Virus record (IMG/VR): IMGVR_UViG_3300025093_000001
DNA length: 64,000 nt
Origin: a virus
Lineage: Duplodnaviria; Heunggongvirae; Uroviricota; Caudoviricetes
Strand: one strand, 5' to 3'
Shown: positions 11,665 through 48,167 of the stretch, in pieces
Position numbering within the stretch: the first letter of the stretch is position 1
How the letters are laid out: each line of letters begins with the position of its first letter
Translations under genes and position numbers: made by a program
Notes under the pieces: model-generated
The model's database searches: none
Seen by the model: only the letters and a program-made list of their open reading frames with translations
Told to the model about the DNA's origin: nothing

Positions 11665-13528
11665 CGTTTATATCAAAGATGCCAAAATCATCTTGATTTA
11701 CTTGATTTTGATTAACCCTTTGTTGCTCTCTTAGTTCTGCATTCTCTCTTTCCACACGGTGAAAAGCCTCTTCTGCATTTATACGAATTGCCTCCATATT
11801 TACTGCAAATCTTTGTGGTCTCATTCTCTGAGGAGCTTCCCTTTCAGGTTCAACCTCAGGCGGTAGATTTTGGAGAAGTTTAATTCTCTTATCTAATTGA
11901 GCATCACTAAGATTATCAATTTCATATGGAGCATTAGACCTTTCAATTTCAGCATAGATATTATCACCGATGAAATCCTTATGGTATTGCTGACGTTTGT
12001 CATTGATAAAATCAAGGATTTTGTTAGCAAAAGCCTCAGGATATGCAGAACTGATTACATCTTCCAATGTAATTTTCTCTCTATTGTCCCTTACAATATC
12101 TCCGTGGTCTTCTACATAAGATAGAATAGCATTGGAAATGAGTAAGTAATTCAGAGCTGTGTTAAAATCCATTGGAGAATTGAAGATTCTGAACTCTACA
12201 GTCTCTTGAGGAAGGAAGGCATACGGTAAGAAATTAACCCAGAAGTATCTGGAATTAAGATTCCATTTGTTTGCCCCCTCTTTAGGAGAATGTCTGTTAT
12301 CCCAATTGAAACGTTGATTCTCCTTAGAACCTTCAGTCAAGAACTCAAAGAATTTGTTAAACTCTACTTTCATTCTTGCCTTGTTTGTATCAATACGGTC
12401 AAGATTCAGATTCAAGCTTTTCAAAGATTGACAATGGTCTTTTGTCTGTCTCTTACTTGTCCAATATCTATAATCTTTTTTGTATGGTGGAATCATATCA
12501 AACATTTCCTCCTGCAGTCTGTAGCACAGTTTGTACAGTGTGAGAGCATTGAGTTTACTTCTTTCAAATCCACCGAAGTGAACGTGGAAAGAGCACATCT
12601 CATTTACTCTACAGAGATTCTGTATCTCAGTATAGAATTTTTTCATAACTGCAAGACCTTTAGCTCCTGAAAATGGAATTGAGGTATACTCAATACCACC
12701 ATCCAGAGAGCCATCTCTTAGTGGAAGAAATCCTAACTTAGCTAAAGTATCTTCTGGGATTTGTCCAGACACTGTTTCAATCTCTACACCAAATGTACGA
12801 CCTTGTAAATGTTCTGCAACCTCTAAAAGAGTTTTACTTGGTGTCAAAGTGTTAGCTGCATAACCTGCCTCAGCCTTCTTCCTGTAATATTCAGAAGTTG
12901 AAACATTATACTGTAACGCTTTTGTGTAGATGTTTCCTTGGTTGCGAGTAGGTTTTCTGAATAACCTTCTTACAATTTTTGGAAGTGCTGGAACATAGAA
13001 TCCATTGCGAGGTTCCTTGATAGCTCCAGATTTTTCGACTGCTTCACTTGCTATAGGAAGAACATAAATTTCAATTCTTCTACCATAACAATCACACATC
13101 TTCTGAACCTGTTCATCATGGAACATTGGTTTTATAACCTTTGCAATGTAAACACTATTCATTCCAGTAGTATTACCAAAGTTTCCACCATAATACAAAT
13201 CAAAAATATTATCTGCAGCATTCGTTGGTATTTTACTACTATATGCAATCACATATTTACCATCCACAAAGTCTTTGATGTAAGGTCTGGCAGCAGTATC
13301 CTGAAAGAATTTAAATGTACCAGTTGCCTCATCAAAGATTATATTAGGATGATTTACTCTGTACCATTGACCATCTGACATCAGAACACATCCTTTGTCA
13401 ATGATATAGTATGCTCCCTTGATAAACCTAGTTTCAGACCTTGGAACCTTTTGTAGATTCATATTTTGGTCATAGGCTTCCACTTTTGTGAGCTTACTTA
13501 TCTTCTTTGAATTTGTTTCCTTCGACAT
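11657..13528 (-). CDS. Glutamine-synthetase-like amidoligase (Amidoligase_2 / GCS2-type COOH-NH2 ligase) with C-terminal extension
   Basis: GVEIETVSG...SFHVHFGG segment, matching the Glu-rich strand and HxH motif of GS-like carboxylate-amine ligases. Confidence 0.55.
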   Translation of the reverse strand: MSKETNSKKISKLTKVEAYDQNMNLQKVPRSETRFIKGAYYIIDKGCVLMSDGQWYRVNHPNIIFDEATGTFKFFQDTAARPYIKDFVDGKYVIAYSSKIPTNAADNIFDLYYGGNFGNTTGMNSVYIAKVIKPMFHDEQVQKMCDCYGRRIEIYVLPIASEAVEKSGAIKEPRNGFYVPALPKIVRRLFRKPTRNQGNIYTKALQYNVSTSEYYRKKAEAGYAANTLTPSKTLLEVAEHLQGRTFGVEIETVSGQIPEDTLAKLGFLPLRDGSLDGGIEYTSIPFSGAKGLAVMKKFYTEIQNLCRVNEMCSFHVHFGGFERSKLNALTLYKLCYRLQEEMFDMIPPYKKDYRYWTSKRQTKDHCQSLKSLNLNLDRIDTNKARMKVEFNKFFEFLTEGSKENQRFNWDNRHSPKEGANKWNLNSRYFWVNFLPYAFLPQETVEFRIFNSPMDFNTALNYLLISNAILSYVEDHGDIVRDNREKITLEDVISSAYPEAFANKILDFINDKRQQYHKDFIGDNIYAEIERSNAPYEIDNLSDAQLDKRIKLLQNLPPEVEPEREAPQRMRPQRFAVNMEAIRINAEEAFHRVERENAELREQQRVNQNQVNQDDFGIFDINDE

Positions 13529-28023: not shown

Positions 28024-28591
28024 TGAGATTGTAAATATGAACTCCTAAATCATTCCCTGTTCTAGGGTTATTGAACGTATTGACGAGTTCCCATTCATTA
28101 CGTTCCAAAATTTTTTGTTGTGGTGTATTACTGAGGATAGTGGTACACATTAAACATCCAAATCCATTAGCTCTCGCTATGTCTTTACGAAGTTCATTAA
28201 GAATAGTACCAATACCTTTACCTCTGTACTTTGGGTCTACAGTAGACCCTGTAGAGACAACTATTCCACAACATCCGGGCATTTGTCTCATGGTAAATTC
28301 TGAAATTACTTTACCACTAAGAGTGAGTAATCTGAAAGTCTGCCTACTTGAGTAATCATACCCATAGTTTAACTTAAAGGTATAACCATTCCCGTAATCT
28401 CTGACAACAGCCCAGCCGTGCCCAAGAATATCAGTTAGTTGTTGTTCATAAGGTTTTAAGACATCTTGTCTTTTACTTGTAACCTGTTTGACAACTCTTT
28501 TGAGCTTTCTAAGCCCTCGATTTAAACTAGCCATTTCATAAGTTTTTAGTGGACCTGAGGGGAGTCGAACCCCCGTCCAGCGTAACATCAA
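28001..28591 (-). CDS. GNAT family N-acyltransferase
   Basis: RGKGIGTILNEL (R/Q-x-x-G-x-G acyl-CoA binding motif) after a beta strand. Confidence 0.55.
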   Translation of the reverse strand: MMLRWTGVRLPSGPLKTYEMASLNRGLRKLKRVVKQVTSKRQDVLKPYEQQLTDILGHGWAVVRDYGNGYTFKLNYGYDYSSRQTFRLLTLSGKVISEFTMRQMPGCCGIVVSTGSTVDPKYRGKGIGTILNELRKDIARANGFGCLMCTTILSNTPQQKILERNEWELVNTFNNPRTGNDLGVHIYNLNEQDRNT

Positions 28592-28954
28592 ATATACAAA
28601 TTATACATGCTTAAAAATTAGGGCTGAATCTGGAATTCAACCTCCACCAGGGTAGTGATAACAGCTAAACCTACGGGTCTTTCAAGGATACTGTCACTCC
28701 AAATTTATACTCTCCTTATCCTTTTTCGAGTTAAATTTTACCCCTTTTCTGTTCCTAGGTAGGGATAACACCTGCTGCATTACGCTACTGCTACTTCACG
28801 CTCTGCAACTACCATAGTTGAGATGAACTCTTCTACAGTAGTGTTAGATAAACTGTTTCCAGTTATTTGTTAATTTACGAGATTCAAGTCAGAGTAAATC
28901 AATCTGACTGCATGTTCATATACTCTCAGATACCTGTCAATTCCAGTCAGGCCC
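28550..28954 (-). ncRNA. ssrA: Candidate tmRNA (ssrA-like), about 405 nt
   Basis: Minus-strand 5' end GGGCCUGACUGGAAUUGACAGG closely matches the tmRNA 5' consensus GGGGCUGAUUCUGGAUUCGACGGG. The 3' end GGACGGGGGUUCGACUCCCCUCAGGUCCA gives a T-arm plus a 7-bp acceptor pairing with the 5' end, including a G3-U wobble. CUCGUAAAU and an internal about 30-codon open frame ending ..VAVA-UAA sit where a tag ORF is expected. Confidence 0.5.
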
Positions 28955-33822: not shown

Positions 33823-33836
33823 TATTGTTTTTTTAG

Positions 33837-33922
33837 TGCAGGAGGAGGGAGTCGAACCCTCACGAACATTACTGCTCACAGGATTTTAAGTCCTGCGTGT
33901 CTACCAATTCCACCACTCCTGC
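33837..33922 (-). tRNA. tRNA-Leu (anticodon UAA), type II with long variable arm
   Basis: Acceptor GCAGGAG/CTCCTGC; anticodon stem CAGGA/TCCTG with loop CUUAAAA; T-arm GAGGG-TTCGACT-CCCTC; 86 nt. Confidence 0.6.
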
Positions 33923-34014
33923 ATACCACTAGAGAAAGTATTTCAACTCTCTGTAGGCGACTATATTTATCATCTATAATTATTAAATCCCTACGCCTGT
34001 GCGACCTAGTGTTG

Positions 34015-34088
34015 TACACCCAATAGGAGTCGAACCTATAACCTACAGCTTAGAAGGCTGTCGCTCTATCCAATTGAGCTATGAGTGT
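34015..34088 (-). tRNA. tRNA-Arg (anticodon UCU)
   Basis: Clean cloverleaf: acceptor ACACTCA/TGGGTGT; D-arm GCTC..GAGC; anticodon arm ACAGC-CUUCUAA-GCTGT; T-arm ATAGG-TTCGACT-CCTAT; 74 nt. Confidence 0.7.
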
Positions 34089-34607: not shown

Positions 34608-36086
34608 TTAAACCAAGGCTGCGACACGCTCCCTGATTTGGGTTAAAGTTGTTGGGTTGAAGAATAGTCCATCCTCATAGATTGTTTGGAGTTCCCCCTC
34701 TCTTTCTTCTAACCAACTTACTTGGTCTTTTAATACAAGACCATCAGCGGTTTTCACAACTTGAAGTAGTCCCTTGGCACTCTTTTTAGTTCCGTCATCA
34801 GTAATAGGGTCTTTGTAGATTTCTCTACCAATTACTTTTCCCTCGGCATCTGTAATTTCTACATAAGTTGCTTTCATAGCAAAACCAAAAGTGTCACGAG
34901 TGTTGAACTGGTAAGTAAAGCTTCCTATGCCCAGTACCACGTTAGTACTTGCAAAGCCTTTCTGTTCCAACCGTTGACATATTTCTTCAGCTCTTTCCAA
35001 GGTGATAGAGTCTCCATAGATTGCTCCAATCTTAGGATTTAGAACTTTGTATCCCTGCTCATTTACAGTTCCACCAAATTCATCCCAAAGGAGTTCAATT
35101 ACACCTTTGTGTTCAGGTAAAGTTTTCATGTCTTCTCGGTCATCCATTACAGTTCCACAAAGGATGTCAGCAGGATTACCAGAATCAGGACGAATGACAA
35201 TTTTACCATCTCTTGCAAGAATTTCATCATGTAATTCAGGCAAATAAGCTGTCAACACTTTCCACAAGTCCCATGTATCAGATACAATGGAGAGAATACC
35301 TTTAGGAAAGATAGACATAAGCCTACGAAATGTGTCAATTTCAGTTTCATGACCACCAGCACACATCACTGAGTGCTCGGTAGCATTTACTGAGTAAATC
35401 ACTCCATCAGGTTCACGATAGTATTTTCTGGCGCCATGTATTGTTGGCAAACTATCAGAACCTAAGAAGCTTGTTGCATGACCTAATCCTGAACTAATGA
35501 CAGCTTCGAGGGAGTCCATGCCTCTCATAGAGAAATCATGTCCTTGAAAATCCACAAAGCCGACATTATCAGCATCGGTCTTGAGTGCCCATTTAGTGAG
35601 TACTTTCTTGAACTCAAGGGCAATTGTTGCGGATGTAATAGGTTTCCACAACAAGTTGGAGATTAAAGTCTCCAGGAAGTTTGTCAACCAGAAGAACTCT
35701 TCATAAGTATTCTTAATGGTTAACACGGGTACACCAATGGGACACAACGTTCCTTCTTCCAAGGCTTTCATTTCAATAGGGAGAAAACCTAAATCCCACA
35801 GGGCTTCGATATGAGAGACATCATAATCCATACCTAGGTACATGGAATACTCGTCTTTAATCTCATTACAGACTGCTCTTTTGGGTTGATTGAAGAAATC
35901 ACGTTGAAAACCATCGTGTATTTGATGCATGACCATTTGGAGTCCAAAGACAACTACGCTGTCTATTCCATTTGGTGCATACTTATTGCTTCGAGGTGTA
36001 AAGTTGGATACAACCAAACTTGTTCCCTCTGGATACATAGGCATGTGACCTGTTTTGTACCCATCAGTTCCTAAAAATGGATTCAT
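34608..36086 (-). CDS. nadV: Nicotinamide phosphoribosyltransferase
   Basis: N-terminal MNPFLGTDGYKTGHMPMYPEGT matches the NAMPT family N-terminus; about 490 aa. Confidence 0.8.
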   Translation of the reverse strand: MNPFLGTDGYKTGHMPMYPEGTSLVVSNFTPRSNKYAPNGIDSVVVFGLQMVMHQIHDGFQRDFFNQPKRAVCNEIKDEYSMYLGMDYDVSHIEALWDLGFLPIEMKALEEGTLCPIGVPVLTIKNTYEEFFWLTNFLETLISNLLWKPITSATIALEFKKVLTKWALKTDADNVGFVDFQGHDFSMRGMDSLEAVISSGLGHATSFLGSDSLPTIHGARKYYREPDGVIYSVNATEHSVMCAGGHETEIDTFRRLMSIFPKGILSIVSDTWDLWKVLTAYLPELHDEILARDGKIVIRPDSGNPADILCGTVMDDREDMKTLPEHKGVIELLWDEFGGTVNEQGYKVLNPKIGAIYGDSITLERAEEICQRLEQKGFASTNVVLGIGSFTYQFNTRDTFGFAMKATYVEITDAEGKVIGREIYKDPITDDGTKKSAKGLLQVVKTADGLVLKDQVSWLEEREGELQTIYEDGLFFNPTTLTQIRERVAALV

Positions 36087-36991
36087 CTGTTATCAGGGTT
36101 AAAAAGTTCAATTACATTCAAATTATCAGGCTTTTCCTCAATAGTACCATCCTCATCAACAACATGCATATAGTAATCATATGTGCTATTGGTGGTGTAT
36201 ACTCTATCAAAGTAACGTACTACTGAATCTTTACCTAAGTTTTGTACAGTCATATGACTGACAGCCAGGAATAATCTTCCTGCATTTCTCTCTCGTAATA
36301 ATTTGGCTAAACCTTTAAAGGTTCCACCATATACGCAAATATCATCAACAATGAGTACATCCTTACCCTTAAAGTCATTGACTGAAAGAATTTGATGTAA
36401 CTTACCATCTACACGAGATTTAGACGCAGAGTGAACCTTACCTCCCCATCTTAGCCTTTTAACTGTATCCATAAGAGGCTTATAACCTCCTGCATCAGCA
36501 GCTAAAAGATGAACAAGAGGATACAGTCTTTCATTTACAGTTGTAATATAATGGTCATGTACCCACTCTGCAGGTAAATGATATACATTTATTGCTAAGT
36601 CTTGAAGTACTTTCTCAATGAAAGTATAATTCTTTAAGATTGCGACATTATTCAAACCCATTTCCACTGCTTGAGGATTGTGTGGATGATAAATAACATA
36701 AATATCTACATCTAAAGAATTAAGAAAATCAAGAACTATCTTGAGACTATAAGAATACCGCCCAAATCTTGAGTCAGCCTGTGCATCAATAAGACGAGGA
36801 AGAGTTACCTGTAGCTTTCTACGATTCATTGAATCATATTGTCTAAAAGCATCAACATACTGTGCTAATTGCCACAGTTGTTCATAGTTTTGGATGCGCC
36901 ATACTATCTCTGATTTTTTAGCATCATCAGTTCTGAAATAAGATGTACCATCAGGATAATTGTGCATCAATATAGGTTTATCACTCATCAT
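36083..36991 (-). CDS. PRTase-fold protein, ribose-phosphate pyrophosphokinase (PRPP synthetase)-like
   Basis: VLIVDDICVYGGT PRPP-binding loop at the position expected in Prs; about 300 aa; translationally coupled to nadV. Confidence 0.5.
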   Translation of the reverse strand: MMSDKPILMHNYPDGTSYFRTDDAKKSEIVWRIQNYEQLWQLAQYVDAFRQYDSMNRRKLQVTLPRLIDAQADSRFGRYSYSLKIVLDFLNSLDVDIYVIYHPHNPQAVEMGLNNVAILKNYTFIEKVLQDLAINVYHLPAEWVHDHYITTVNERLYPLVHLLAADAGGYKPLMDTVKRLRWGGKVHSASKSRVDGKLHQILSVNDFKGKDVLIVDDICVYGGTFKGLAKLLRERNAGRLFLAVSHMTVQNLGKDSVVRYFDRVYTTNSTYDYYMHVVDEDGTIEEKPDNLNVIELFNPDNR

Positions 36992-37370
36992 CTTCTTCTT
37001 TACAAGCTATAAACTTGAATTGTAAGTTACATTCATTGTTGGCTAATACACACTTGTACGGTGAAATGAAAAGTTTCACCTGTGTATCATTTGGGGCTGT
37101 ACCTTTTAGAATAAAATATTCATCTTTAAAGCTGAACATCTTATCTAATGTGTACACTCGTTGTTCACCATTAAAATATAGTGTAAAACTGTCTAAGTCC
37201 ACACTCAGAGTTATTGAAGCTGGTTGTGCTGGTGAACAAGTATCTACACATGATGATTTAACATTAGAGTTAAAACAAAATGCAGTACTATCATAATCGT
37301 ATTGTACGATTTGAGAAAAGCTAGTCCATGTAAAGCAGGACAATAGTAGGGTGAAGAAAAATGCTTTCAT
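36981..37370 (-). CDS. Secreted protein
   Basis: Signal peptide MKAFFFTLLLSCFTWTSFSQ. Confidence 0.45.
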   Translation of the reverse strand: MKAFFFTLLLSCFTWTSFSQIVQYDYDSTAFCFNSNVKSSCVDTCSPAQPASITLSVDLDSFTLYFNGEQRVYTLDKMFSFKDEYFILKGTAPNDTQVKLFISPYKCVLANNECNLQFKFIACKEEDDE

Positions 37371-37382
37371 ACATTCTGAGTT

Positions 37383-37411
37383 AAAAAAGCCCTCATATTT
37401 CAGAGGGCTTT
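37383..37411 (-). terminator. Rho-independent terminator (usable in both directions) after the SPFH gene
   Basis: GCCCTC-loop-GAGGGC with A-run on one side and T-run on the other. Confidence 0.45.
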
Positions 37412-37442
37412 GTCCAATTATGAAACTATTCTATGTATTACC

Positions 37443-38756
37443 CTATTTGGATAAACTTTTCTCGATGTCCATGAGCATTTTAATACCCAAGGCATCCATT
37501 GGTGATGCTCCACCATTGCCTCCACCTGTCACTACGACATTTGGCACTTTTACTTTGGCTAACTCAGCAGCAATACCAACCCGAGTCTTATAGTCCCATT
37601 CAGCCTCTTCCTGAGGCGTGAGACCAGCAGCACGGAGAGCTCGGTTTGCAGCAGCCTTAGCATCTTGCTCTCGTTGTACTTTGAGTGCAATATACTTAGC
37701 CTTTTCTGCATTTTCCTGTTCTACCTGTTTTGCTTTACGAGCCCGAATTACTGACTGTCTCTCATCAGCTTCCTCTTTGGCAGTTACTTCAGCAATAAGC
37801 TTTCGACCCTTTACAATGGCCTCTTGCTCTTCCTGTTGTGCTGTAATGAGTCGCTGTTTCGAGGTAGCTTCATCTGCTGCTGCATCAATCTTATCCTTAA
37901 GCTTAGCATAAATACGCTTGTCATAGCTTACACGGTCAATTGATGCAAATGATGCAAACAGATTGTACTTCTGAATGTCAGATACAGTTCGGAGAATATT
38001 ACCATTTTGGTCACGTTTCTCATCAGTAATGATGTAAGTCTTTGTGGAAGAATCAGGTAATGTCTTCACCTTAGTTTCAGTTACCAAAAGAACCTGTCCA
38101 TTACGGAGTTGGTCTTGGAAATAGTCTTTTAATTGTGACTGTCCTCCAGAATAATGTTCTTCTGATGTCATCCGTTGACATGAGTAACTGGCCGTTTCTT
38201 TCTGATACTGGATAAGAGTAGTTTGTTTTAAGTTATCAATGTTGTTATAAGTTGTGTGTAACTCCAACATGTCAACCTCATTAACAGGTAAATCCCATTT
38301 CACAGTATGAGAAACATAGGCATTATCACCTTCTGCAAATGTAGCGGAGTGTCTTTTCTCCCAATAATCTGCTTCTTGTGACCGTTTATCCTCTGCTGAT
38401 ACTTGTACAGTTACGTTATTAGGCCAAGTAGTTACCTTAGAGAAGAACCCACACCAATACCATCCAGGAGTGAATTTTACCCACAGGTCACCATCGACAG
38501 TCTGAACAACTTGTCTATTACCAGCATCATTGTTAGCTAAGGGGTTTGAAATCCCTGCAACAATTAGTAAGATGGAAGCAAAGAATAAACTTACAATTCC
38601 ACCACGACTTAAGCTAAGACCTCCAAGAACTCCAGGCTTAACCCGTTTACCATTCTCTTCACGTTGGGCATTAGCCTTGTCAATTTGTTTGTTAACTGAA
38701 CTTACAGCCAACAGGAACACTGCAATGAGTAGTCCCAATACACCGAGTAGTGTCAT
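37443..38756 (-). CDS. SPFH/band-7 (prohibitin/HflK-like) membrane protein
   Basis: N-terminal TM helix, long coiled-coil Glu/Ala/Lys region, C-terminal ...PNVVVTGGGNGG typical of the band-7 family. Confidence 0.55.
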   Translation of the reverse strand: MTLLGVLGLLIAVFLLAVSSVNKQIDKANAQREENGKRVKPGVLGGLSLSRGGIVSLFFASILLIVAGISNPLANNDAGNRQVVQTVDGDLWVKFTPGWYWCGFFSKVTTWPNNVTVQVSAEDKRSQEADYWEKRHSATFAEGDNAYVSHTVKWDLPVNEVDMLELHTTYNNIDNLKQTTLIQYQKETASYSCQRMTSEEHYSGGQSQLKDYFQDQLRNGQVLLVTETKVKTLPDSSTKTYIITDEKRDQNGNILRTVSDIQKYNLFASFASIDRVSYDKRIYAKLKDKIDAAADEATSKQRLITAQQEEQEAIVKGRKLIAEVTAKEEADERQSVIRARKAKQVEQENAEKAKYIALKVQREQDAKAAANRALRAAGLTPQEEAEWDYKTRVGIAAELAKVKVPNVVVTGGGNGGASPMDALGIKMLMDIEKSLSK

Positions 38757-40650: not shown

Positions 40651-40965
40651 CTAGTTGTAAGTGATAAATTGGTAATGCTTGTTGGATGAGCCACTCACTA
40701 ATTTGTGATGGCTTTGAGAGTTGTCATAATAAATGGAAATGTCAAAGTTATTTCCAATAATGACAATAGTATCTGTACCTTTAGGCACAGTAGTAGTTAA
40801 ATTGAGGTCACCTCTAACATCAAACCAACCTTGTGAAGTTTTGAGACTGTATGAACTACTAGAGTTCACGATTATCTCTCGCTCCACAAGGTTTGATTCA
40901 ACATTAATATCACCACATGATAGTAACATCATGATGGCACAAAATGAAAGAAACAAGATTTTCAT
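40651..40965 (-). CDS. Lipoprotein
   Basis: MKILFLSFCAIMMLLSCGD lipobox. Confidence 0.45.
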   Translation of the reverse strand: MKILFLSFCAIMMLLSCGDINVESNLVEREIIVNSSSSYSLKTSQGWFDVRGDLNLTTTVPKGTDTIVIIGNNFDISIYYDNSQSHHKLVSGSSNKHYQFITYN

Positions 40966-41396
40966 CCTTTACAGTCTTTAAGTGAAAGTAAGTAATGTCT
41001 TTGAGCTTTCTTATTTCGTTTATCCTGTATCGACTTAAGCTTTTGAGCTTTGATAGATGCGAACACATAGTCTCTAAAGCATACCTTAGACAATCTCTTA
41101 GAGTATTTGTCATAGATATGGTCTTTCCAGAACCAGAAAGGCACAGCATTAAATGTTATTACTGTGTCTTGTTTTTCAGTAAAGTCTATACCATTACCAG
41201 AATACTTAGCAGATGAGATAAATGGACGATGAGTGTTTACATTAACGATTCTGATAAAATACACCTCATTGTCTGGAGATGTTAATGTGAAATCAGAGAT
41301 GAGACCATAGCTTACAAGCCTTAATGTTTGGATGGTTACAAAGATAGTAAATACAAAAATGGCCATATATAATAGCCCTGTTCTAAAGTTTTTCAT
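40962..41396 (-). CDS. Membrane-anchored protein
   Basis: N-terminal TM helix. Confidence 0.45.
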   Translation of the reverse strand: MKNFRTGLLYMAIFVFTIFVTIQTLRLVSYGLISDFTLTSPDNEVYFIRIVNVNTHRPFISSAKYSGNGIDFTEKQDTVITFNAVPFWFWKDHIYDKYSKRLSKVCFRDYVFASIKAQKLKSIQDKRNKKAQRHYLLSLKDCKG

Positions 41397-41436
41397 GAGT
41401 GTGATATTTTGTTAGAGTAATGTAAATGTAAGTGGT

Positions 41437-41464
41437 AAAGAAAGAAAGGGGCTTCACAGCCCCT
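41437..41464 (-). terminator. Rho-independent terminator
   Basis: GGGGCT-loop-AGCCCC followed by TTTCTTTCTTT on the minus strand. Confidence 0.4.
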
Positions 41465-41524
41465 CTCACTTTGTTAACTAAACTACTAACTAATAAGTCT
41501 ACCAACTTACTTGAGTTCTCATTG

Positions 41525-41773
41525 TCAATCAAATGACCACAGTCTAGCTGATGAGATTAATAAATGCATGAGTGCGTCTGCATCAATGTAAAGATTATTA
41601 GAGATTTCTCTCAAAGCACACACATGGGTTAAGCCATGTACTTCACATAGAGACCAGATTAAAGTCTGGCACTTACTACATACTCCATTATAAACTTCCA
41701 TTTCAGCAATGTCCCTTACGAGGCTAATGAGGTGTCCCCCAACCATTAAACTTACTCTTTTCATTTCAATCAA
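41525..41773 (-). CDS. Hypothetical Cys-containing small protein
   Basis: ORF. Confidence 0.4.
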   Translation of the reverse strand: MIEMKRVSLMVGGHLISLVRDIAEMEVYNGVCSKCQTLIWSLCEVHGLTHVCALREISNNLYIDADALMHLLISSARLWSFD

Positions 41774-42383
41774 CTACTTTGCGAGCAGTATCATGCCTAC
41801 ATATTGCAGTAGGATAACTCTATTGTTAGAGCATGTGCGTTAACACTTTGGCTTAGTTGCATAGAATTAAAATTTCTACTCCTATATAAAATCTTGGACA
41901 GGACGTGGTTAACGCTTGTATGTCATGCTATCTTTTGGATAGTTTAGACACCAACGCCCCGTTGTAGCTGTCACACTACGTTAATAAACGAGAGTTACCT
42001 CATCTATTAATGAACACAACTTACCATGCTTGACAACATGTTTCGGTCATATCCTACTGATTACTTATTGATTCACCTTTTGGCTTCACTCACTACCCAC
42101 TGATTCTGAGGGTAGCCATACTCATCTGATAAGACTCTGTATGGATTTCAGCTTGCTTACATGGACTGTGCAGAGTACAGCACAAAGACTTTAATATAGG
42201 AATAGTCTTCATTTTATCCTCATCACTGAGGTTATCCTTACGACAATAAGCTGCCGTGTCATTTAGTAGTCTATCAAGTAGACTTAACGCACACACCATG
42301 AGCATCTAAACTCTGAGGGTATGACAATGTGTGCTTGAAGGGAGAATACTCTCCCTCCCTCACTCAACCAATTGGTAATAAAA

Positions 42384-42647
42384 CTACCAATTTCTTTGTT
42401 TGCCAAACTTCAACACTCTAGGTGAGAAGAATTGAGCAGCCTTCCAAGCTCTTTTGAGTTCAAGGAAGTATGATAGGTCTGTAATGAGGACGAGACCTAT
42501 TAGAATGTATTGTGCATAGTGGTTGTCTAACTCTACAAGGTAGAAGAAGAGATAGATGTAGATAATTGTGATTATCCACAGTATGCAATTGATGAAGAAG
42601 ACAACACGAAACTTCATGTATCTCCATGCATGTTTAAACTTTTTCAT
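42384..42647 (-). CDS. Small membrane protein (holin-like candidate)
   Basis: Two TM helices; overlapping start/stop with its neighbour. Confidence 0.4.
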   Translation of the reverse strand: MKKFKHAWRYMKFRVVFFINCILWIITIIYIYLFFYLVELDNHYAQYILIGLVLITDLSYFLELKRAWKAAQFFSPRVLKFGKQRNW

Positions 42648-42925
42648 GAGGTGTGATGTTTATAGTTAGTCAAGGCAGATTTGGCAAATCCCCAATTGAG
42701 TTGGAGAAGATAGGCAGCAAGAGCTGAACCAAAAAGACTCATGATGATGAAGAAGATTGCATCTCCTGAGAATGGTATTTCTACTAAGAAGATGTAGATT
42801 GTCAAACCAGATAGCATCCACATGAGGATAGCTATGATGGCAACTTGTCTGAACTGTCTAACAGTCCAAGCAAATCTTAGGATTGTGATGAATGTCATAA
42901 TGTCTTTTTTAAAGAAAGAGAACAA
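42644..42925 (-). CDS. Small membrane protein (holin-like candidate)
   Basis: Two or three TM helices. Confidence 0.4.
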   Translation of the reverse strand: MFSFFKKDIMTFITILRFAWTVRQFRQVAIIAILMWMLSGLTIYIFLVEIPFSGDAIFFIIMSLFGSALAAYLLQLNWGFAKSALTNYKHHTS

Positions 42926-43038
42926 GGCGGTAGTGCTCTCTTGTTGTCAATTTTCCACCACTATTCACTCATAATAAATAGTATTGACTTTTGTACAAGC
43001 GTCCTCGTACCCCTATATCTTGAAGTAATTGGGGGTTG

Positions 43039-43245
43039 TCATAGTTCTAACAACCCCAAATTGTTTTCTTGAAATTCTTTCAATTCTTTTTCTGCTTTTG
43101 CCAATCTTTCTAAATGATAAGATGCAATTGTTGTGAGGCCTAATTCAAAGGCTGCGAGATGATGTCTTTTGTAGTACATACATCTGTTAATGAGGGAAGA
43201 TTCTATTTGTCTTGCCTCAATTGAGAGTTCTGTGATAGCAATCAT
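43039..43245 (-). CDS. Hypothetical protein
   Basis: ORF. Confidence 0.35.
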   Translation of the reverse strand: MIAITELSIEARQIESSLINRCMYYKRHHLAAFELGLTTIASYHLERLAKAEKELKEFQENNLGLLEL

Positions 43246-43314
43246 TGGTATAATGTTTATGAGTAATTAGCTATTAATTAGTAGTAGATTAAGATAAGAG
43301 AAGAGATAGAAAAG

Positions 43315-43342
43315 AGTGTAAAAGGGGTTTGGAAATCCCCCC
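43315..43342 (-). terminator. Terminator hairpin (GGGG...CCCC), second of a tandem pair
   Basis: GC stem followed by a T-rich stretch on the minus strand. Confidence 0.35.
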
Positions 43343-43409
43343 AACCACACATCTTCTCTGTCTCCTCTCCACTTTTATCTATCGTGTCTAAGGGTTTCTA
43401 GAGACCAAA

Positions 43410-43427
43410 GGGGTTTATACAACCCCT
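43410..43427 (-). terminator. Terminator hairpin overlapping the stop codon of the 43415..43879 gene
   Basis: GGGGTT-loop-AACCCC followed by TTTGG on the minus strand. Confidence 0.35.
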
Positions 43428-43879
43428 TGTGCATCTGCCAACAGTTGCTGTGCAGCAGCATTGTTGTCAGTTGAAGATTCAATGCCTTGTTTCTGCAATG
43501 CTTGCAGCATGGCAATTGCCTCCTTGCGTCCACCGCCCAATTGTACACCCTTCTCGTGGAATCTGTAGGTATACTGTGGTGTAACACCATCATCCTGCAT
43601 CTTCACGTTGCCATTCTCATCATACAGTAGCACCATGGTGCGGTCGTAGTTGAGTACTTCGTCACCTGATGCATAGGTGTCACCACTGTTGAGTGTTCCA
43701 TCAGTTTGGGCCCAGCCCATTGATGTGTCTGATACTAGTCCCTTAGCAGTAGTCTGCTTGCGAAACTCTGTCCAATGCAGATTTCTCTCTGCAAGTTGTT
43801 TGACCTTGGACAATCCTGTTCTTCCGATTTTAATTTCCATTGAATTAAATAAATTGATTAAACATTTGACCCTATTCAA
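43415..43879 (-). CDS. Hypothetical protein; first gene of the minus-strand block
   Basis: ORF adjacent to the divergent intergenic region. Confidence 0.45.
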   Translation of the reverse strand: MNRVKCLINLFNSMEIKIGRTGLSKVKQLAERNLHWTEFRKQTTAKGLVSDTSMGWAQTDGTLNSGDTYASGDEVLNYDRTMVLLYDENGNVKMQDDGVTPQYTYRFHEKGVQLGGGRKEAIAMLQALQKQGIESSTDNNAAAQQLLADAQGVV

Positions 43880-44016
43880 GGCAGGGGGTCTTCTCCCGCA
43901 CTTTTAAGTAGGGGGGCTGTTTAATTGGCTCCTCTCCATCTCCATTCTCTTTCCAACTTTAAAATTTTTGTATAATTTTTTTCCTTACAACTTCATTTGT
44001 AATTGTAAGAGAGATT

Positions 44017-45129: not shown

Positions 45130-45326
45130 TGTGGTATGCTATATTGAGATTGAGTCTGCTGGGTTTAGTGTTGATACTAGTCATTGGGCAGATATTAGGT
45201 CTCACTATAGCATTATCAGTTTTGTTTGTATTTGTTAGAGTGTTATTGACAGCAATATTCTATATATCAATTCCAAAGATTATACTGTATTTAACAGATA
45301 TGTATGGAAAAAAGAAAAAACACTGA
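45129..45326 (+). CDS. Small membrane protein
   Basis: Two TM helices. Confidence 0.35.
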   Translation: MWYAILRLSLLGLVLILVIGQILGLTIALSVLFVFVRVLLTAIFYISIPKIILYLTDMYGKKKKH

Positions 45327-45963
45327 GAAGAGAGTGCCAAAAGGAGAGATAACATTTAAGTTACAGTTAACAGAAGAGCAAAAAGAAGCTAAGGCTAATA
45401 TCTTGGCTAACACTATTTCAGTTCTAACTGGAGTTGCAGGGAGTTCCAAAAGCTTCCTTGCTTGTCAAGTAGCATTGGATATGTTCTTTAAAAGGCAGAT
45501 TAATAGAATCTCCTTTTGTAGACCTACAGTTGCTACAGAGGATTTGGGTCACCTTCCAGGGACTCTTGAGGAGAAATACTTTCAATGGTGTCTACCTCTT
45601 ATAGATAATATGTATAAGATGTATGACAAGCAGAAGATAGATGAGATGATTCATCAAGGTGATATTATCTTTAGACCTCTGCAGTTTGTTGCGGGAGTTA
45701 CATTTGATGATGAAGTGGCTATTATGGATGAAGCACAGAATGCAACTAAGGAGCAGATGGTGAGATTCCTTACTAGGATAGGGCCAAACGCTAAGGTATT
45801 GATTACAGGAGACCCCGCACAGATAGACCTAAAGCAGAAGAGTCGTTCTGGCTTGCAGAGGTTGATTGATGTGGAGCATAAGATAGATAAACTTTATGTG
45901 GCTCATCTGAAGGGTAACTATAGAAATGATATTGTGAGAGAGGTTTTGACACACTACGCATAA
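45304..45963 (+). CDS. phoH: PhoH-like ATPase
   Basis: Walker A GVAGSSKS and ITGDPAQIDL, characteristic of the PhoH family. Confidence 0.75.
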   Translation: MEKRKNTEKRVPKGEITFKLQLTEEQKEAKANILANTISVLTGVAGSSKSFLACQVALDMFFKRQINRISFCRPTVATEDLGHLPGTLEEKYFQWCLPLIDNMYKMYDKQKIDEMIHQGDIIFRPLQFVAGVTFDDEVAIMDEAQNATKEQMVRFLTRIGPNAKVLITGDPAQIDLKQKSRSGLQRLIDVEHKIDKLYVAHLKGNYRNDIVREVLTHYA

Positions 45964-48084: not shown

Positions 48085-48154
48085 TGCGGGGAGAATGAGT
48101 ATTCCAGCTGGTCTCATAAGCCAGCCTCCGTGGGTGCGACTCCCACCTCCGCAA
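48085..48154 (+). other. tRNA-like element (acceptor-like stem TGCGGGG/CTCCGCA, T-arm-like GTGGG-TGCGACT-CCCAC, 8-nt loop hairpin GCTGG-TCTCATAA-CCAGC) lacking a clear D-arm
   Basis: Stems read directly in an 83-bp gap between two + strand CDS. Confidence 0.25.
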
Positions 48155-48167
48155 CTAAAGAAAACAA

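Follow-up and report, generated by a model that had tools for sequence, protein, structure and literature searches.

The window, by which we mean the whole stretch of 64,000 nucleotides analysed here from the virus record IMGVR_UViG_3300025093_000001 (IMG/VR; Caudoviricetes), contains a portion without a convincing protein gene between the genes at 42384-42925 and the one at 41396..40962. An initial annotation, made from the letters alone, had set apart positions 41774-42383 of this portion as free of credible open reading frames (ORFs) and had suggested several things that might lie there, a long structured non-coding RNA (ncRNA) among them. Our analysis makes it very probable that this ORF-poor stretch belongs to the gene of a GOLLD RNA, a two-domain ncRNA encoded on the minus strand of a crAss-like phage of about 102 kb. 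GOLLD RNAs (Rfam RF02032; Weinberg et al. 2009) are among the largest non-coding RNAs of bacteria and phages and form cages made of RNA only, to which no function has yet been assigned in any member of the family. The copy described here is a divergent member of this known family in a phage lineage not listed before, and no new kind of element.

The match to the GOLLD family

Over its full length the 3' half of the element matches the covariance model of GOLLD with secure statistics, the 5' half has its homologs in the 5' domains of a divergent GOLLD clade, and helices in both halves are maintained by compensatory changes. In a scan of the Infernal type that reports by E-value, RF02032 matches 41962..41565 over model positions 1-416 of 416 with 74.4 bits (E = 5.5e-19 for the 1.6-kb region 41300-42900, E = 2.2e-17 for the whole 64-kb window). 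This is the only GOLLD match in the window, and it lies well below the E < 1e-5 at which the published census collected the family with cmsearch (PMC12286853). A default Rfam scan of the window with gathering thresholds reports a transfer-messenger RNA (tmRNA) and two tRNAs only; it misses GOLLD because 74.4 bits is under the gathering score of 150. The Rfam/Infernal scan that had been proposed at the outset therefore resolved the identity of the element through a match below that score. Among the model pairs that carry residues, 77 of 87 (88%) are standard, and 80 of the 131 highly conserved consensus positions are identical.

In GOLLDs generally the 3' region is universally conserved and the 5' region less so; many members exceed 800 nt, and they occur in phages and prophages, often near tRNAs (PMC12286853). 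As RF02032 models no more than this conserved 3' part, the 5' domain would be made up of the 376 nt that remain between the match and 42338. The total of 376 + 398 = 774 nt fits the two-domain architecture (about 700-850 nt, with a structured and less conserved 5' domain directly upstream); the RNA is about 775 nt long, or about 900 nt if counted to the terminator. The suggestion of a long structured ncRNA was thus correct, by the Rfam match and by the covariation described below. Its left boundary was not: the element continues to 41565 and on to the terminator, through an 82-amino-acid (aa) ORF with a TTG start that had been taken for a gene. The interval first singled out covers about 73% of the RNA (565 of 774 nt); the 3'-most 209 nt were missed, and the strand was left unstated. 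The features are collected in Table 1, where env-38 denotes a GOLLD RNA whose cage has been solved (RF02032, PDB 9MEE, PMC12286853).

Table 1. Features of the GOLLD RNA locus in the window, from the 5' side of the RNA to its 3' side
Feature	Position	Strand	Basis or remark
Perfect 6-bp hairpin GGGAGA-GUAU-UCUCCC (GGGAGAATACTCTCCC)	42340..42355	minus	Read from sequence
GOLLD RNA, conserved span, 774 nt	42338..41565	minus	5' domain of 376 nt plus 3' domain of 398 nt
5' domain, 376 nt	41963..42338	minus	Clade homology, covariance model, folding
H1, three-part stem GCACAC/GUGUGC + ACC/GGU + GAG/CUC	42289..42334	minus	5' end of RNA
70-aa ATG ORF	42093-42305	minus	ORF list; only ORF of at least 60 aa inside 41774-42383
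GCGUUAA, candidate 5' strand of long-range helix closing the 5' domain	42284..42290	minus	Partner UUAACG at 41979-41984
H2, variable hairpin GUCUAC-UUGA-UAGAC, one A-A mismatch	42269..42283	minus	Alignments
H3, ACGGCA/UGUCGU	42240..42257	minus	Matches first stem of env-38 cryo-EM construct (GGCCGCUAUGGUCGU)
H4, hairpin CCUCA-GUGA-UGAGG, GNRA tetraloop	42218..42231	minus	Covariance model
3' domain, universally conserved half of GOLLD	41565..41962	minus	RF02032 match
P14-type hairpin, conserved CAAAAG loop (loop 41932-41937)	41928..41942	minus	Loop equals Rfam consensus UCAAAAG
Variable linker, 43 nt, no embedded tRNA	41855..41897	minus	Aligns to poorly conserved A/U-rich part of Rfam model
J13/15 motif AAGCCAAAGUGUU, then GUUAACGC	41837..41854 (J13/15 at 41842-41854)	minus	AAGCnAAAGU common with Rfam consensus
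P20-type hairpin, CGCAA loop	41774..41788	minus	Loop equals Rfam consensus CGCAA
82-aa TTG ORF over 3' domain and following spacer (41525-41564)	41525..41773	minus	Judged spurious
Intrinsic terminator, 10-pair stem with 6 G-C pairs, then UUUCUUU	41467..41444	minus	Terminator scan

Helices of the two domains and the clade that shares them

Folding of the 3' half is supported independently of the family model. Run on seven homologous 3' domains without Rfam information, RNAalifold proposes 69 pairs, of which 50 show compensatory changes; hairpins of the Rfam model reappear in this prediction, namely those with the CAAAAG and CGCAA loops and the 3' terminal ones. The CAAAAG loop is invariant across the clade, and the GC of the CGCAA loop is complementary to the GC of J13/15. 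The linker is bracketed by GCGUUAAC (41915..41908) and its complement GUUAACGC (41844..41837). RNAalifold pairs columns 81-92 with 205-214 as a linker-closing helix, in which several pairs have changed on both sides; we tentatively suggest that GUUAACGC and GCGUUAAC form this helix in the window, where it would overlap the P13 stem of the Rfam model.

The 5' half behaves as a structured RNA of the minus strand: against shuffled sequences, single-strand folding gives z = -4.0 for this strand and -1.34 for the plus strand. On seven homologous whole 5' domains RNAalifold finds 60 pairs, 34 with compensatory changes; in one of the predicted helices the GUUAA directly behind H1 is paired with the end of the domain. 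In the relatives this closing helix (columns 57-61 with 491-495) shows little variation; in the window the partner is offset in the alignment, and GCGUUAA would pair with UUAACG as read from the sequence.

The first 130-145 nt align well between the window and six relatives, and in this part we drew five helices by eye, three of them the parts of H1 and the others H3 and H4. In the seven-sequence alignment the fraction of paired cells is 96.8%, and two-sided changes occur in 10 of the 22 pairs. Two covariance models were built from this part, R1 with the window and R2 from the six relatives only, the window being left out; both hit 42338..42207. For R2 this leave-one-out match is the single one in the 64-kb window (minus strand, 78.2 bits, E = 4.4e-13), and it contains no non-standard pair, H1 included. 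R1 found 25 loci, 18 of them distinct. Over these 18 sequences 93.8% of cells pair, a value that falls to 31-41% once the 3' partners are shifted by 1-3 columns; 20 of 22 pairs change on both sides, and none of 500 shuffles reaches the observed values. The covariation check in relatives that the initial annotation had called for was in this way answered in both domains (20/22 pairs here, 50/69 in the 3' domain). All 12 pairs of H1 vary among the 18 sequences, 11 of them on both sides; the same holds for five of the six pairs of H3 and for all four modelled pairs of H4 in terms of two-sided change. At the position of H2 every relative has a hairpin, differing in sequence and length.

The 5' domain is shorter in the window (376 nt) than in the nearest relatives (412-485 nt). 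A hairpin with a GGUGGUG loop is among the elements it lacks. In the relatives this hairpin aligns with the env-38 stretch that holds the U339-G341 U-turn and, by our assignment, bridge B5. All our mapping of env-38 contacts, B5 included, is by motif only and uses a machine-read copy (optical character recognition, OCR) of 815 of the 833 nt, that is, 18 nt short. The likeness of H3 to env-38 (sequence from Supplementary Table 4, PMC12286853) and to the canonical GOLLD L018 was judged by eye. Labels of this kind, L followed by a number of three digits, denote retrieved contig loci that were compared with the window.

Direct similarity did not lead to these relatives. A blastn search of 50,697 phage records gives no match at E <= 1e-5 and, at E <= 10, matches of chance quality only; an exact 20-mer from the RNA is absent from viral contigs; the adjacent 144-aa protein matches only itself; and a first protein-based scan of viral contigs found nothing. 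Loci around homologs of the SPFH-like gene of this phage are equally empty: by Rfam L008, L009, L012 and L013 hold no GOLLD, and R1 finds nothing in these four or in L014 and L016. Relatives were retrieved with motifs common to the window RNA and the Rfam consensus. A loose two-part motif gave 20 loci in viral contigs, among them six GOLLDs, two canonical (305 and 227 bits) and four below threshold (49-102 bits); with a stricter motif, derived from the sub-threshold ones, 9 viral and 34 metagenomic loci were retrieved. With the window RNA as a single query, nhmmer aligns L038, L040/L056/L062 and L039 from query position 47/48 (about 42336), and in L040/L056 the alignment extends to the 3' end of the RNA. 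A profile of the aligned sequences covers nearly all retrieved loci over most of both domains and yields 35 distinct sequences. Ten relatives scanned by Rfam are GOLLDs at 45-105 bits; eight match the whole model and the other two are cut by the end of the locus. Against canonical GOLLDs a sequence-only profile of the clade gives weak local matches only, and the collinear weak matches of the 5' domain to env-38 and L018 reach only E = 0.01-1.

The motif of the clade was also sought in 185,579 species genomes. It matches twice, in metagenome-assembled genomes (MAGs) of a Flavobacterium and of a member of the Bacteroidales, neither match being a GOLLD by Rfam or R1; we take both as chance and draw no conclusion about hosts from them. 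A further candidate feature was a pairing between the loop of the 5'-domain hairpin 42190-42214 (42190-42205) and the linker (41876-41891), where 12 contiguous pairs are possible in the minus-strand RNA. In L038, L039, L040, L053 and L052 there are shorter complementarities of other sequence in the same two places. A permutation of cognate against non-cognate partners over 14 clade members gives p of about 0.02, largely driven by the window itself; the pairing is not established.

Regarding the ends of the transcript, the terminator, a strong one, stands about 100 nt past the last GOLLD helix and ahead of the next gene, which suggests a discrete 3' end. On the other side, 48 nt before 42338, the stop codon of the upstream ORF is overlapped by a TAGTTTTA box, and the relative L072 has TATCTTTG 21 nt upstream of its RNA. 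Both resemble what we take to be the Bacteroidota -7 consensus, and this is only suggestive; co-transcription of the RNA with the genes at 42384-42925 is as possible as a promoter of its own. The perfect hairpin at 42340..42355 is immediately 5' of the conserved RNA and has no U-tract. It may be a 5' stem of the transcript or a processing site. The upstream regions of the relatives show no similarity, and the hairpin is not conserved there.

Objections and competing explanations

Several observations weigh against the identification as a GOLLD RNA. The match of 74.4 bits has half of the Rfam curated gathering score of 150. In it 11 model pairs are deleted and 10 are non-standard, and at about 39% of the highly conserved positions the residue departs from the consensus, the junction motifs GAGUAAU and GAGUAG being affected too. 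The covariation counts on 18 sequences come from an alignment that was fitted to the model. Two inter-shell contact elements differ from env-38, as far as our own mapping on the shortened OCR sequence goes. No promoter was identified upstream of the RNA. There is no adjacent tRNA and none in the linker, the nearest being at 33836-34088 and 48085-48155, about 7.5 kb away; adjacency to tRNAs, or their embedding, is frequent ('often') in GOLLDs and not universal (PMC12286853). Finally, all 18 contigs with this phage reduce to 7 loci that are 100% identical over whatever part of the region they cover (three span all of it), and therefore nothing can be said about selection at this particular copy.

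Some of these points would be expected if the sequence were a decaying remnant, homologous to GOLLD and no longer folded or used. The score under the gathering threshold, the loss of several conserved junction motifs, the deleted model pairs and the trimmed 5' domain all go in this direction, and the population offers no variation with which selection could be tested. However, the pairs that have been retained are still standard at 88%, every helix of the 5' model pairs without mismatch, the key loops and junction (CAAAAG, CGCAA, AAGCnAAAG) are intact, and the RNA has kept its own terminator. The low score, moreover, recurs in all 11 clade members scanned, the window included (45-105 bits, compared with 227-305 bits for canonical GOLLDs fetched in the same way). 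It is therefore a property of the clade, in which compensatory change is abundant, and not a peculiarity of this copy. The value of 150 is an operational cutoff and not a biological feature; we take it to be set conservatively, with the result that a divergent clade escapes it. Decay of this copy seems to us very improbable. It is still harder to believe that the 82-aa and 70-aa ORFs (41525-41773 and 42093-42305, minus strand) are real small phage genes. Both are on the same strand as the neighbouring genes, and one gene caller, the third that was consulted, predicts versions of both on L003, where it calls short ORFs inconsistently. On the identical contigs L001 and L002 the gene callers leave 41396-42384 empty and both ORFs uncalled. 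Neither ORF has a match in a PHROG search, and the substitutions among relatives preserve base pairs and not reading frames. An ORF in orthologous regions had been named initially as one observation that would speak against an RNA; at these positions the homologous RNAs of the nearest relatives have none of at least 60 aa, and within the GOLLDs of L035, L039, L040, L053, L062 and L072 there is no ORF of that size at all, L038 having an antisense one only. We judge both ORFs to be spurious and not conserved, and the statement that 41774-42383 lacks a convincing gene, with the 70-aa ORF as its lone candidate, holds.

A gap without genes could also be accounted for by a replication origin or by a pac/cos site for packaging, and both had been suggested initially. 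The cumulative GC-skew minimum of the window falls at about 42000-44000, and a few short inverted repeats are present. But the skew turns where the genes switch from minus to plus near 44000, 1.6 kb from the RNA, and it is this switch in gene orientation that produces the minimum. Neither iterons nor tandem repeats nor an AT-rich unwinding element occur in the region; its repeats are short, have two copies each and are no more frequent than chance would give, and it is slightly richer in G+C than its flanks. The latter was part of the initial description and is true of the immediate surroundings (39.7% compared with 34.8% and 36.4%); relative to the whole window (37.2%) the excess is unremarkable, at the 83rd percentile of 610-nt windows. 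The repeated motifs reported earlier are where they were said to be: CTGAGGGTA at 42106 and 42313, GTTAACGC or its reverse complement at 41908 and 41837 with TTAACGC at 42284, and the hairpin GGGAGAATACTCTCCC starting at 42340. The CTGAGGGTA pair is near chance, since two or more copies arise in 5 of 100 shuffles, while the three GTTAACGC-like repeats are, we infer, strands of RNA helices, two bracketing the linker and one in the helix that closes the 5' domain. With the repeats explained in this manner, and the sequence fully accounted for by the family match and by folding that is specific to one strand, we regard an origin or a packaging site as unsupported and very unlikely. A ribozyme, the remaining early suggestion, finds no backing either, as no ribozyme family matches the region. 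ROOL RNA (RF03087) was considered as another large, ornate RNA of phages and prophages that is often near tRNAs and forms RNA-only cages; it is unrelated to GOLLD in sequence and secondary structure, and it has no match in 41300-42900 at E <= 10 and none in the window at E <= 0.1.

Probable cage assembly, the host phage and neighbouring features

What might such an RNA do? The env-38 GOLLD is a closed 14-mer cage with D7 symmetry, in which the 5' domains form caps, the 3' domains form rings and the linker is disordered inside (PMC12286853). Its chains are bridged by A34 and A35 of a GAAA loop (B1), by the adenines of P14-type loops, which donate an inter-chain A-minor bridge (B6), and by a kissing bridge (B7) that pairs residues 617/618 with 546/547 (PMC12286853). 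The RNA of the window resembles it in being a two-domain phage RNA of about 0.8 kb with the whole conserved 3' domain matched. It also has the CAAAAG loop (L14-type), the AAGCnAAAG junction, the CGCAA loop (L20-type) with its complementary GC, and a short variable linker. The first 5' stems are alike as well (GGC..GUCGU, AUAAC, a GNRA hairpin, GAUAAA.UG), and H4 appears to sit where env-38 has its GAAA loop. By this analogy three bridge elements would be retained: the CAAAAG loop for B6, the GC/GC pair of J13/15 and CGCAA for B7, and the GNRA loop GUGA on H4 for B1. The transcript, presumably made during lytic growth, would then probably fold into a 5' 'cap' and a 3' 'ring' domain and assemble with its own copies into a closed cage of RNA only. 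Its linker (41897..41855) may correspond to the disordered loop of env-38 and would point inward.

There are also differences. The window RNA scores at half the gathering score, and its primary sequence similarity to canonical GOLLDs is near noise. Compared with the env-38 construct it has an extra 5' leader (H1 and H2), which R1 and R2 do not find in the canonical L018 or L032, and a shorter 5' domain. In solved members the L24 tetraloop docks on P21 and the L21 kissing loops are self-complementary; the corresponding loops of the window, by our own motif mapping, are CUUAAC instead of a GNRA loop (L24-type) and GACA without a self-complementary dinucleotide (L21a-type), with GUAA as the L21b-type loop. 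Unlike GOLLDs at large, this copy has no adjacent tRNA, and unlike those of the census, it sits in a crAss-like phage. The L24/L21 contacts between half-shells differ among the solved GOLLDs themselves (PMC12990946). The Streptococcus agalactiae GOLLD (700 nt, a dodecamer solved by cryo-EM, PDB 9L0R, PMC12990946) likewise has a reduced 5' domain with several consensus stems lost; the elements lost are other ones, its host is a prophage of a Gram-positive bacterium, and the likeness drawn here is one of architecture. It shows that trimmed members of the family can be functional assemblers. The S. agalactiae RNA, in which several 5' stems are absent, builds a 12-mer; from its 3' domain alone mainly a 10-mer arises, so that cage size follows the content of the 5' domain (PMC12990946). 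Self-assembly would be expected of the window RNA too. Published GOLLDs form 10-, 12- or 14-mers. For the window RNA, with changed contact loops and a trimmed 5' domain, the number of subunits is therefore not predictable.

A more speculative suggestion can be made. The window RNA and its roughly 35 metagenomic relatives could constitute a distinct GOLLD subtype, marked by a conserved 5' leader (H1 and H2), the 5'-closing helix, a different or trimmed cap and altered inter-shell loops; the window RNA itself adds the 12-bp complementarity between loop and linker. We hold this to be possible and, on balance, doubtful. If correct, the subtype might form a cage that is unlike the solved 10-, 12- and 14-mers in stoichiometry or geometry, or hold in place a linker that is disordered elsewhere.

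As for the phage, genes for terminase, portal and major head protein are present in the same window, a phage setting as for other GOLLDs, and the longest contig with an identical neighbouring protein has 102,410 bp. The major head protein shares 39.6% identity with its counterpart in Flavobacterium phage FpV4 (genus Fipvunavirus); Bacteroides crAss-like phages, crAssphage and Cellulophaga phages are among its further matches. The SPFH-like gene, 3 kb from the RNA, has many homologs overall and close ones in Flavobacteriaceae. Judged from these genes, the host is likely a member of the Bacteroidota. Among the 806 GOLLDs of the census none is listed for a crAss-like, Cellulophaga or Flavobacterium phage, and genomes of Bacteroides and Flavobacterium contribute only short partial matches (PMC12286853); a literature search gave no report of a GOLLD in crAss-like phages. 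The present case extends the range of GOLLD to a crAss-like phage, a kind of host that does not occur in the published census of isolate phage genomes. Another consequence is practical. With the clade at 45-105 bits and the threshold at 150, default annotation leaves unexplained gaps or false small ORFs, such as the 82-aa ORF here. A naturally trimmed 5' domain together with changed contact loops also offers a comparison for how GOLLD sequence sets the size of the cage. By itself the finding brings the function of GOLLD no closer; it is solid, and ordinary in kind.

Around the relatives' GOLLDs, PHROG annotation was uninformative on the type of phage. Members of the same clade are found on contigs of 345-412 kb, the size of jumbo phages (L028, L037/L050, L041/L048, L049). 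In L037 and L049, and also in L042, L059 and L075, which are smaller loci, a tRNA has its 3' end within about 100 nt upstream of the GOLLD. In L022 the GOLLD (11781-12251, minus) has a tRNA (12070-12145) embedded in its linker; it scores only 49.5 bits by Rfam, yet its 3' domain is among those most similar to that of the window RNA. In the window itself, the tRNA-Met at 48085-48155 (plus) is an ARAGORN call only, on which the Rfam tRNA model is silent even at E <= 0.1, and it may be false or an atypical tRNA. The phage tmRNA at 28547-28954 (minus) presents the opposite case, with 78.1 bits in Rfam, above its gathering score, and no counterpart in the ARAGORN output. Other tmRNAs are located beside the GOLLDs of L034 and L035, and one more in L012.

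The window also carries auxiliary genes, at 34608-38756 (minus) and 45304-45963 (plus), for a nicotinamide phosphoribosyltransferase, a phosphoribosyltransferase-domain protein, the SPFH-like protein and PhoH. Small ribozymes turn up in several of the compared loci: a Hatchet ribozyme in L053 (1904-2084), which precedes the GOLLD by about 800 nt; in L039 (9133-9199), about 230 nt upstream of the GOLLD, a twister-P1 match slightly short of its threshold; in L013 (511-565) another twister-P1 match, a weak one; and a RAGATH-1 hammerhead in L009 (11307-11382), directly after the SPFH-like gene.

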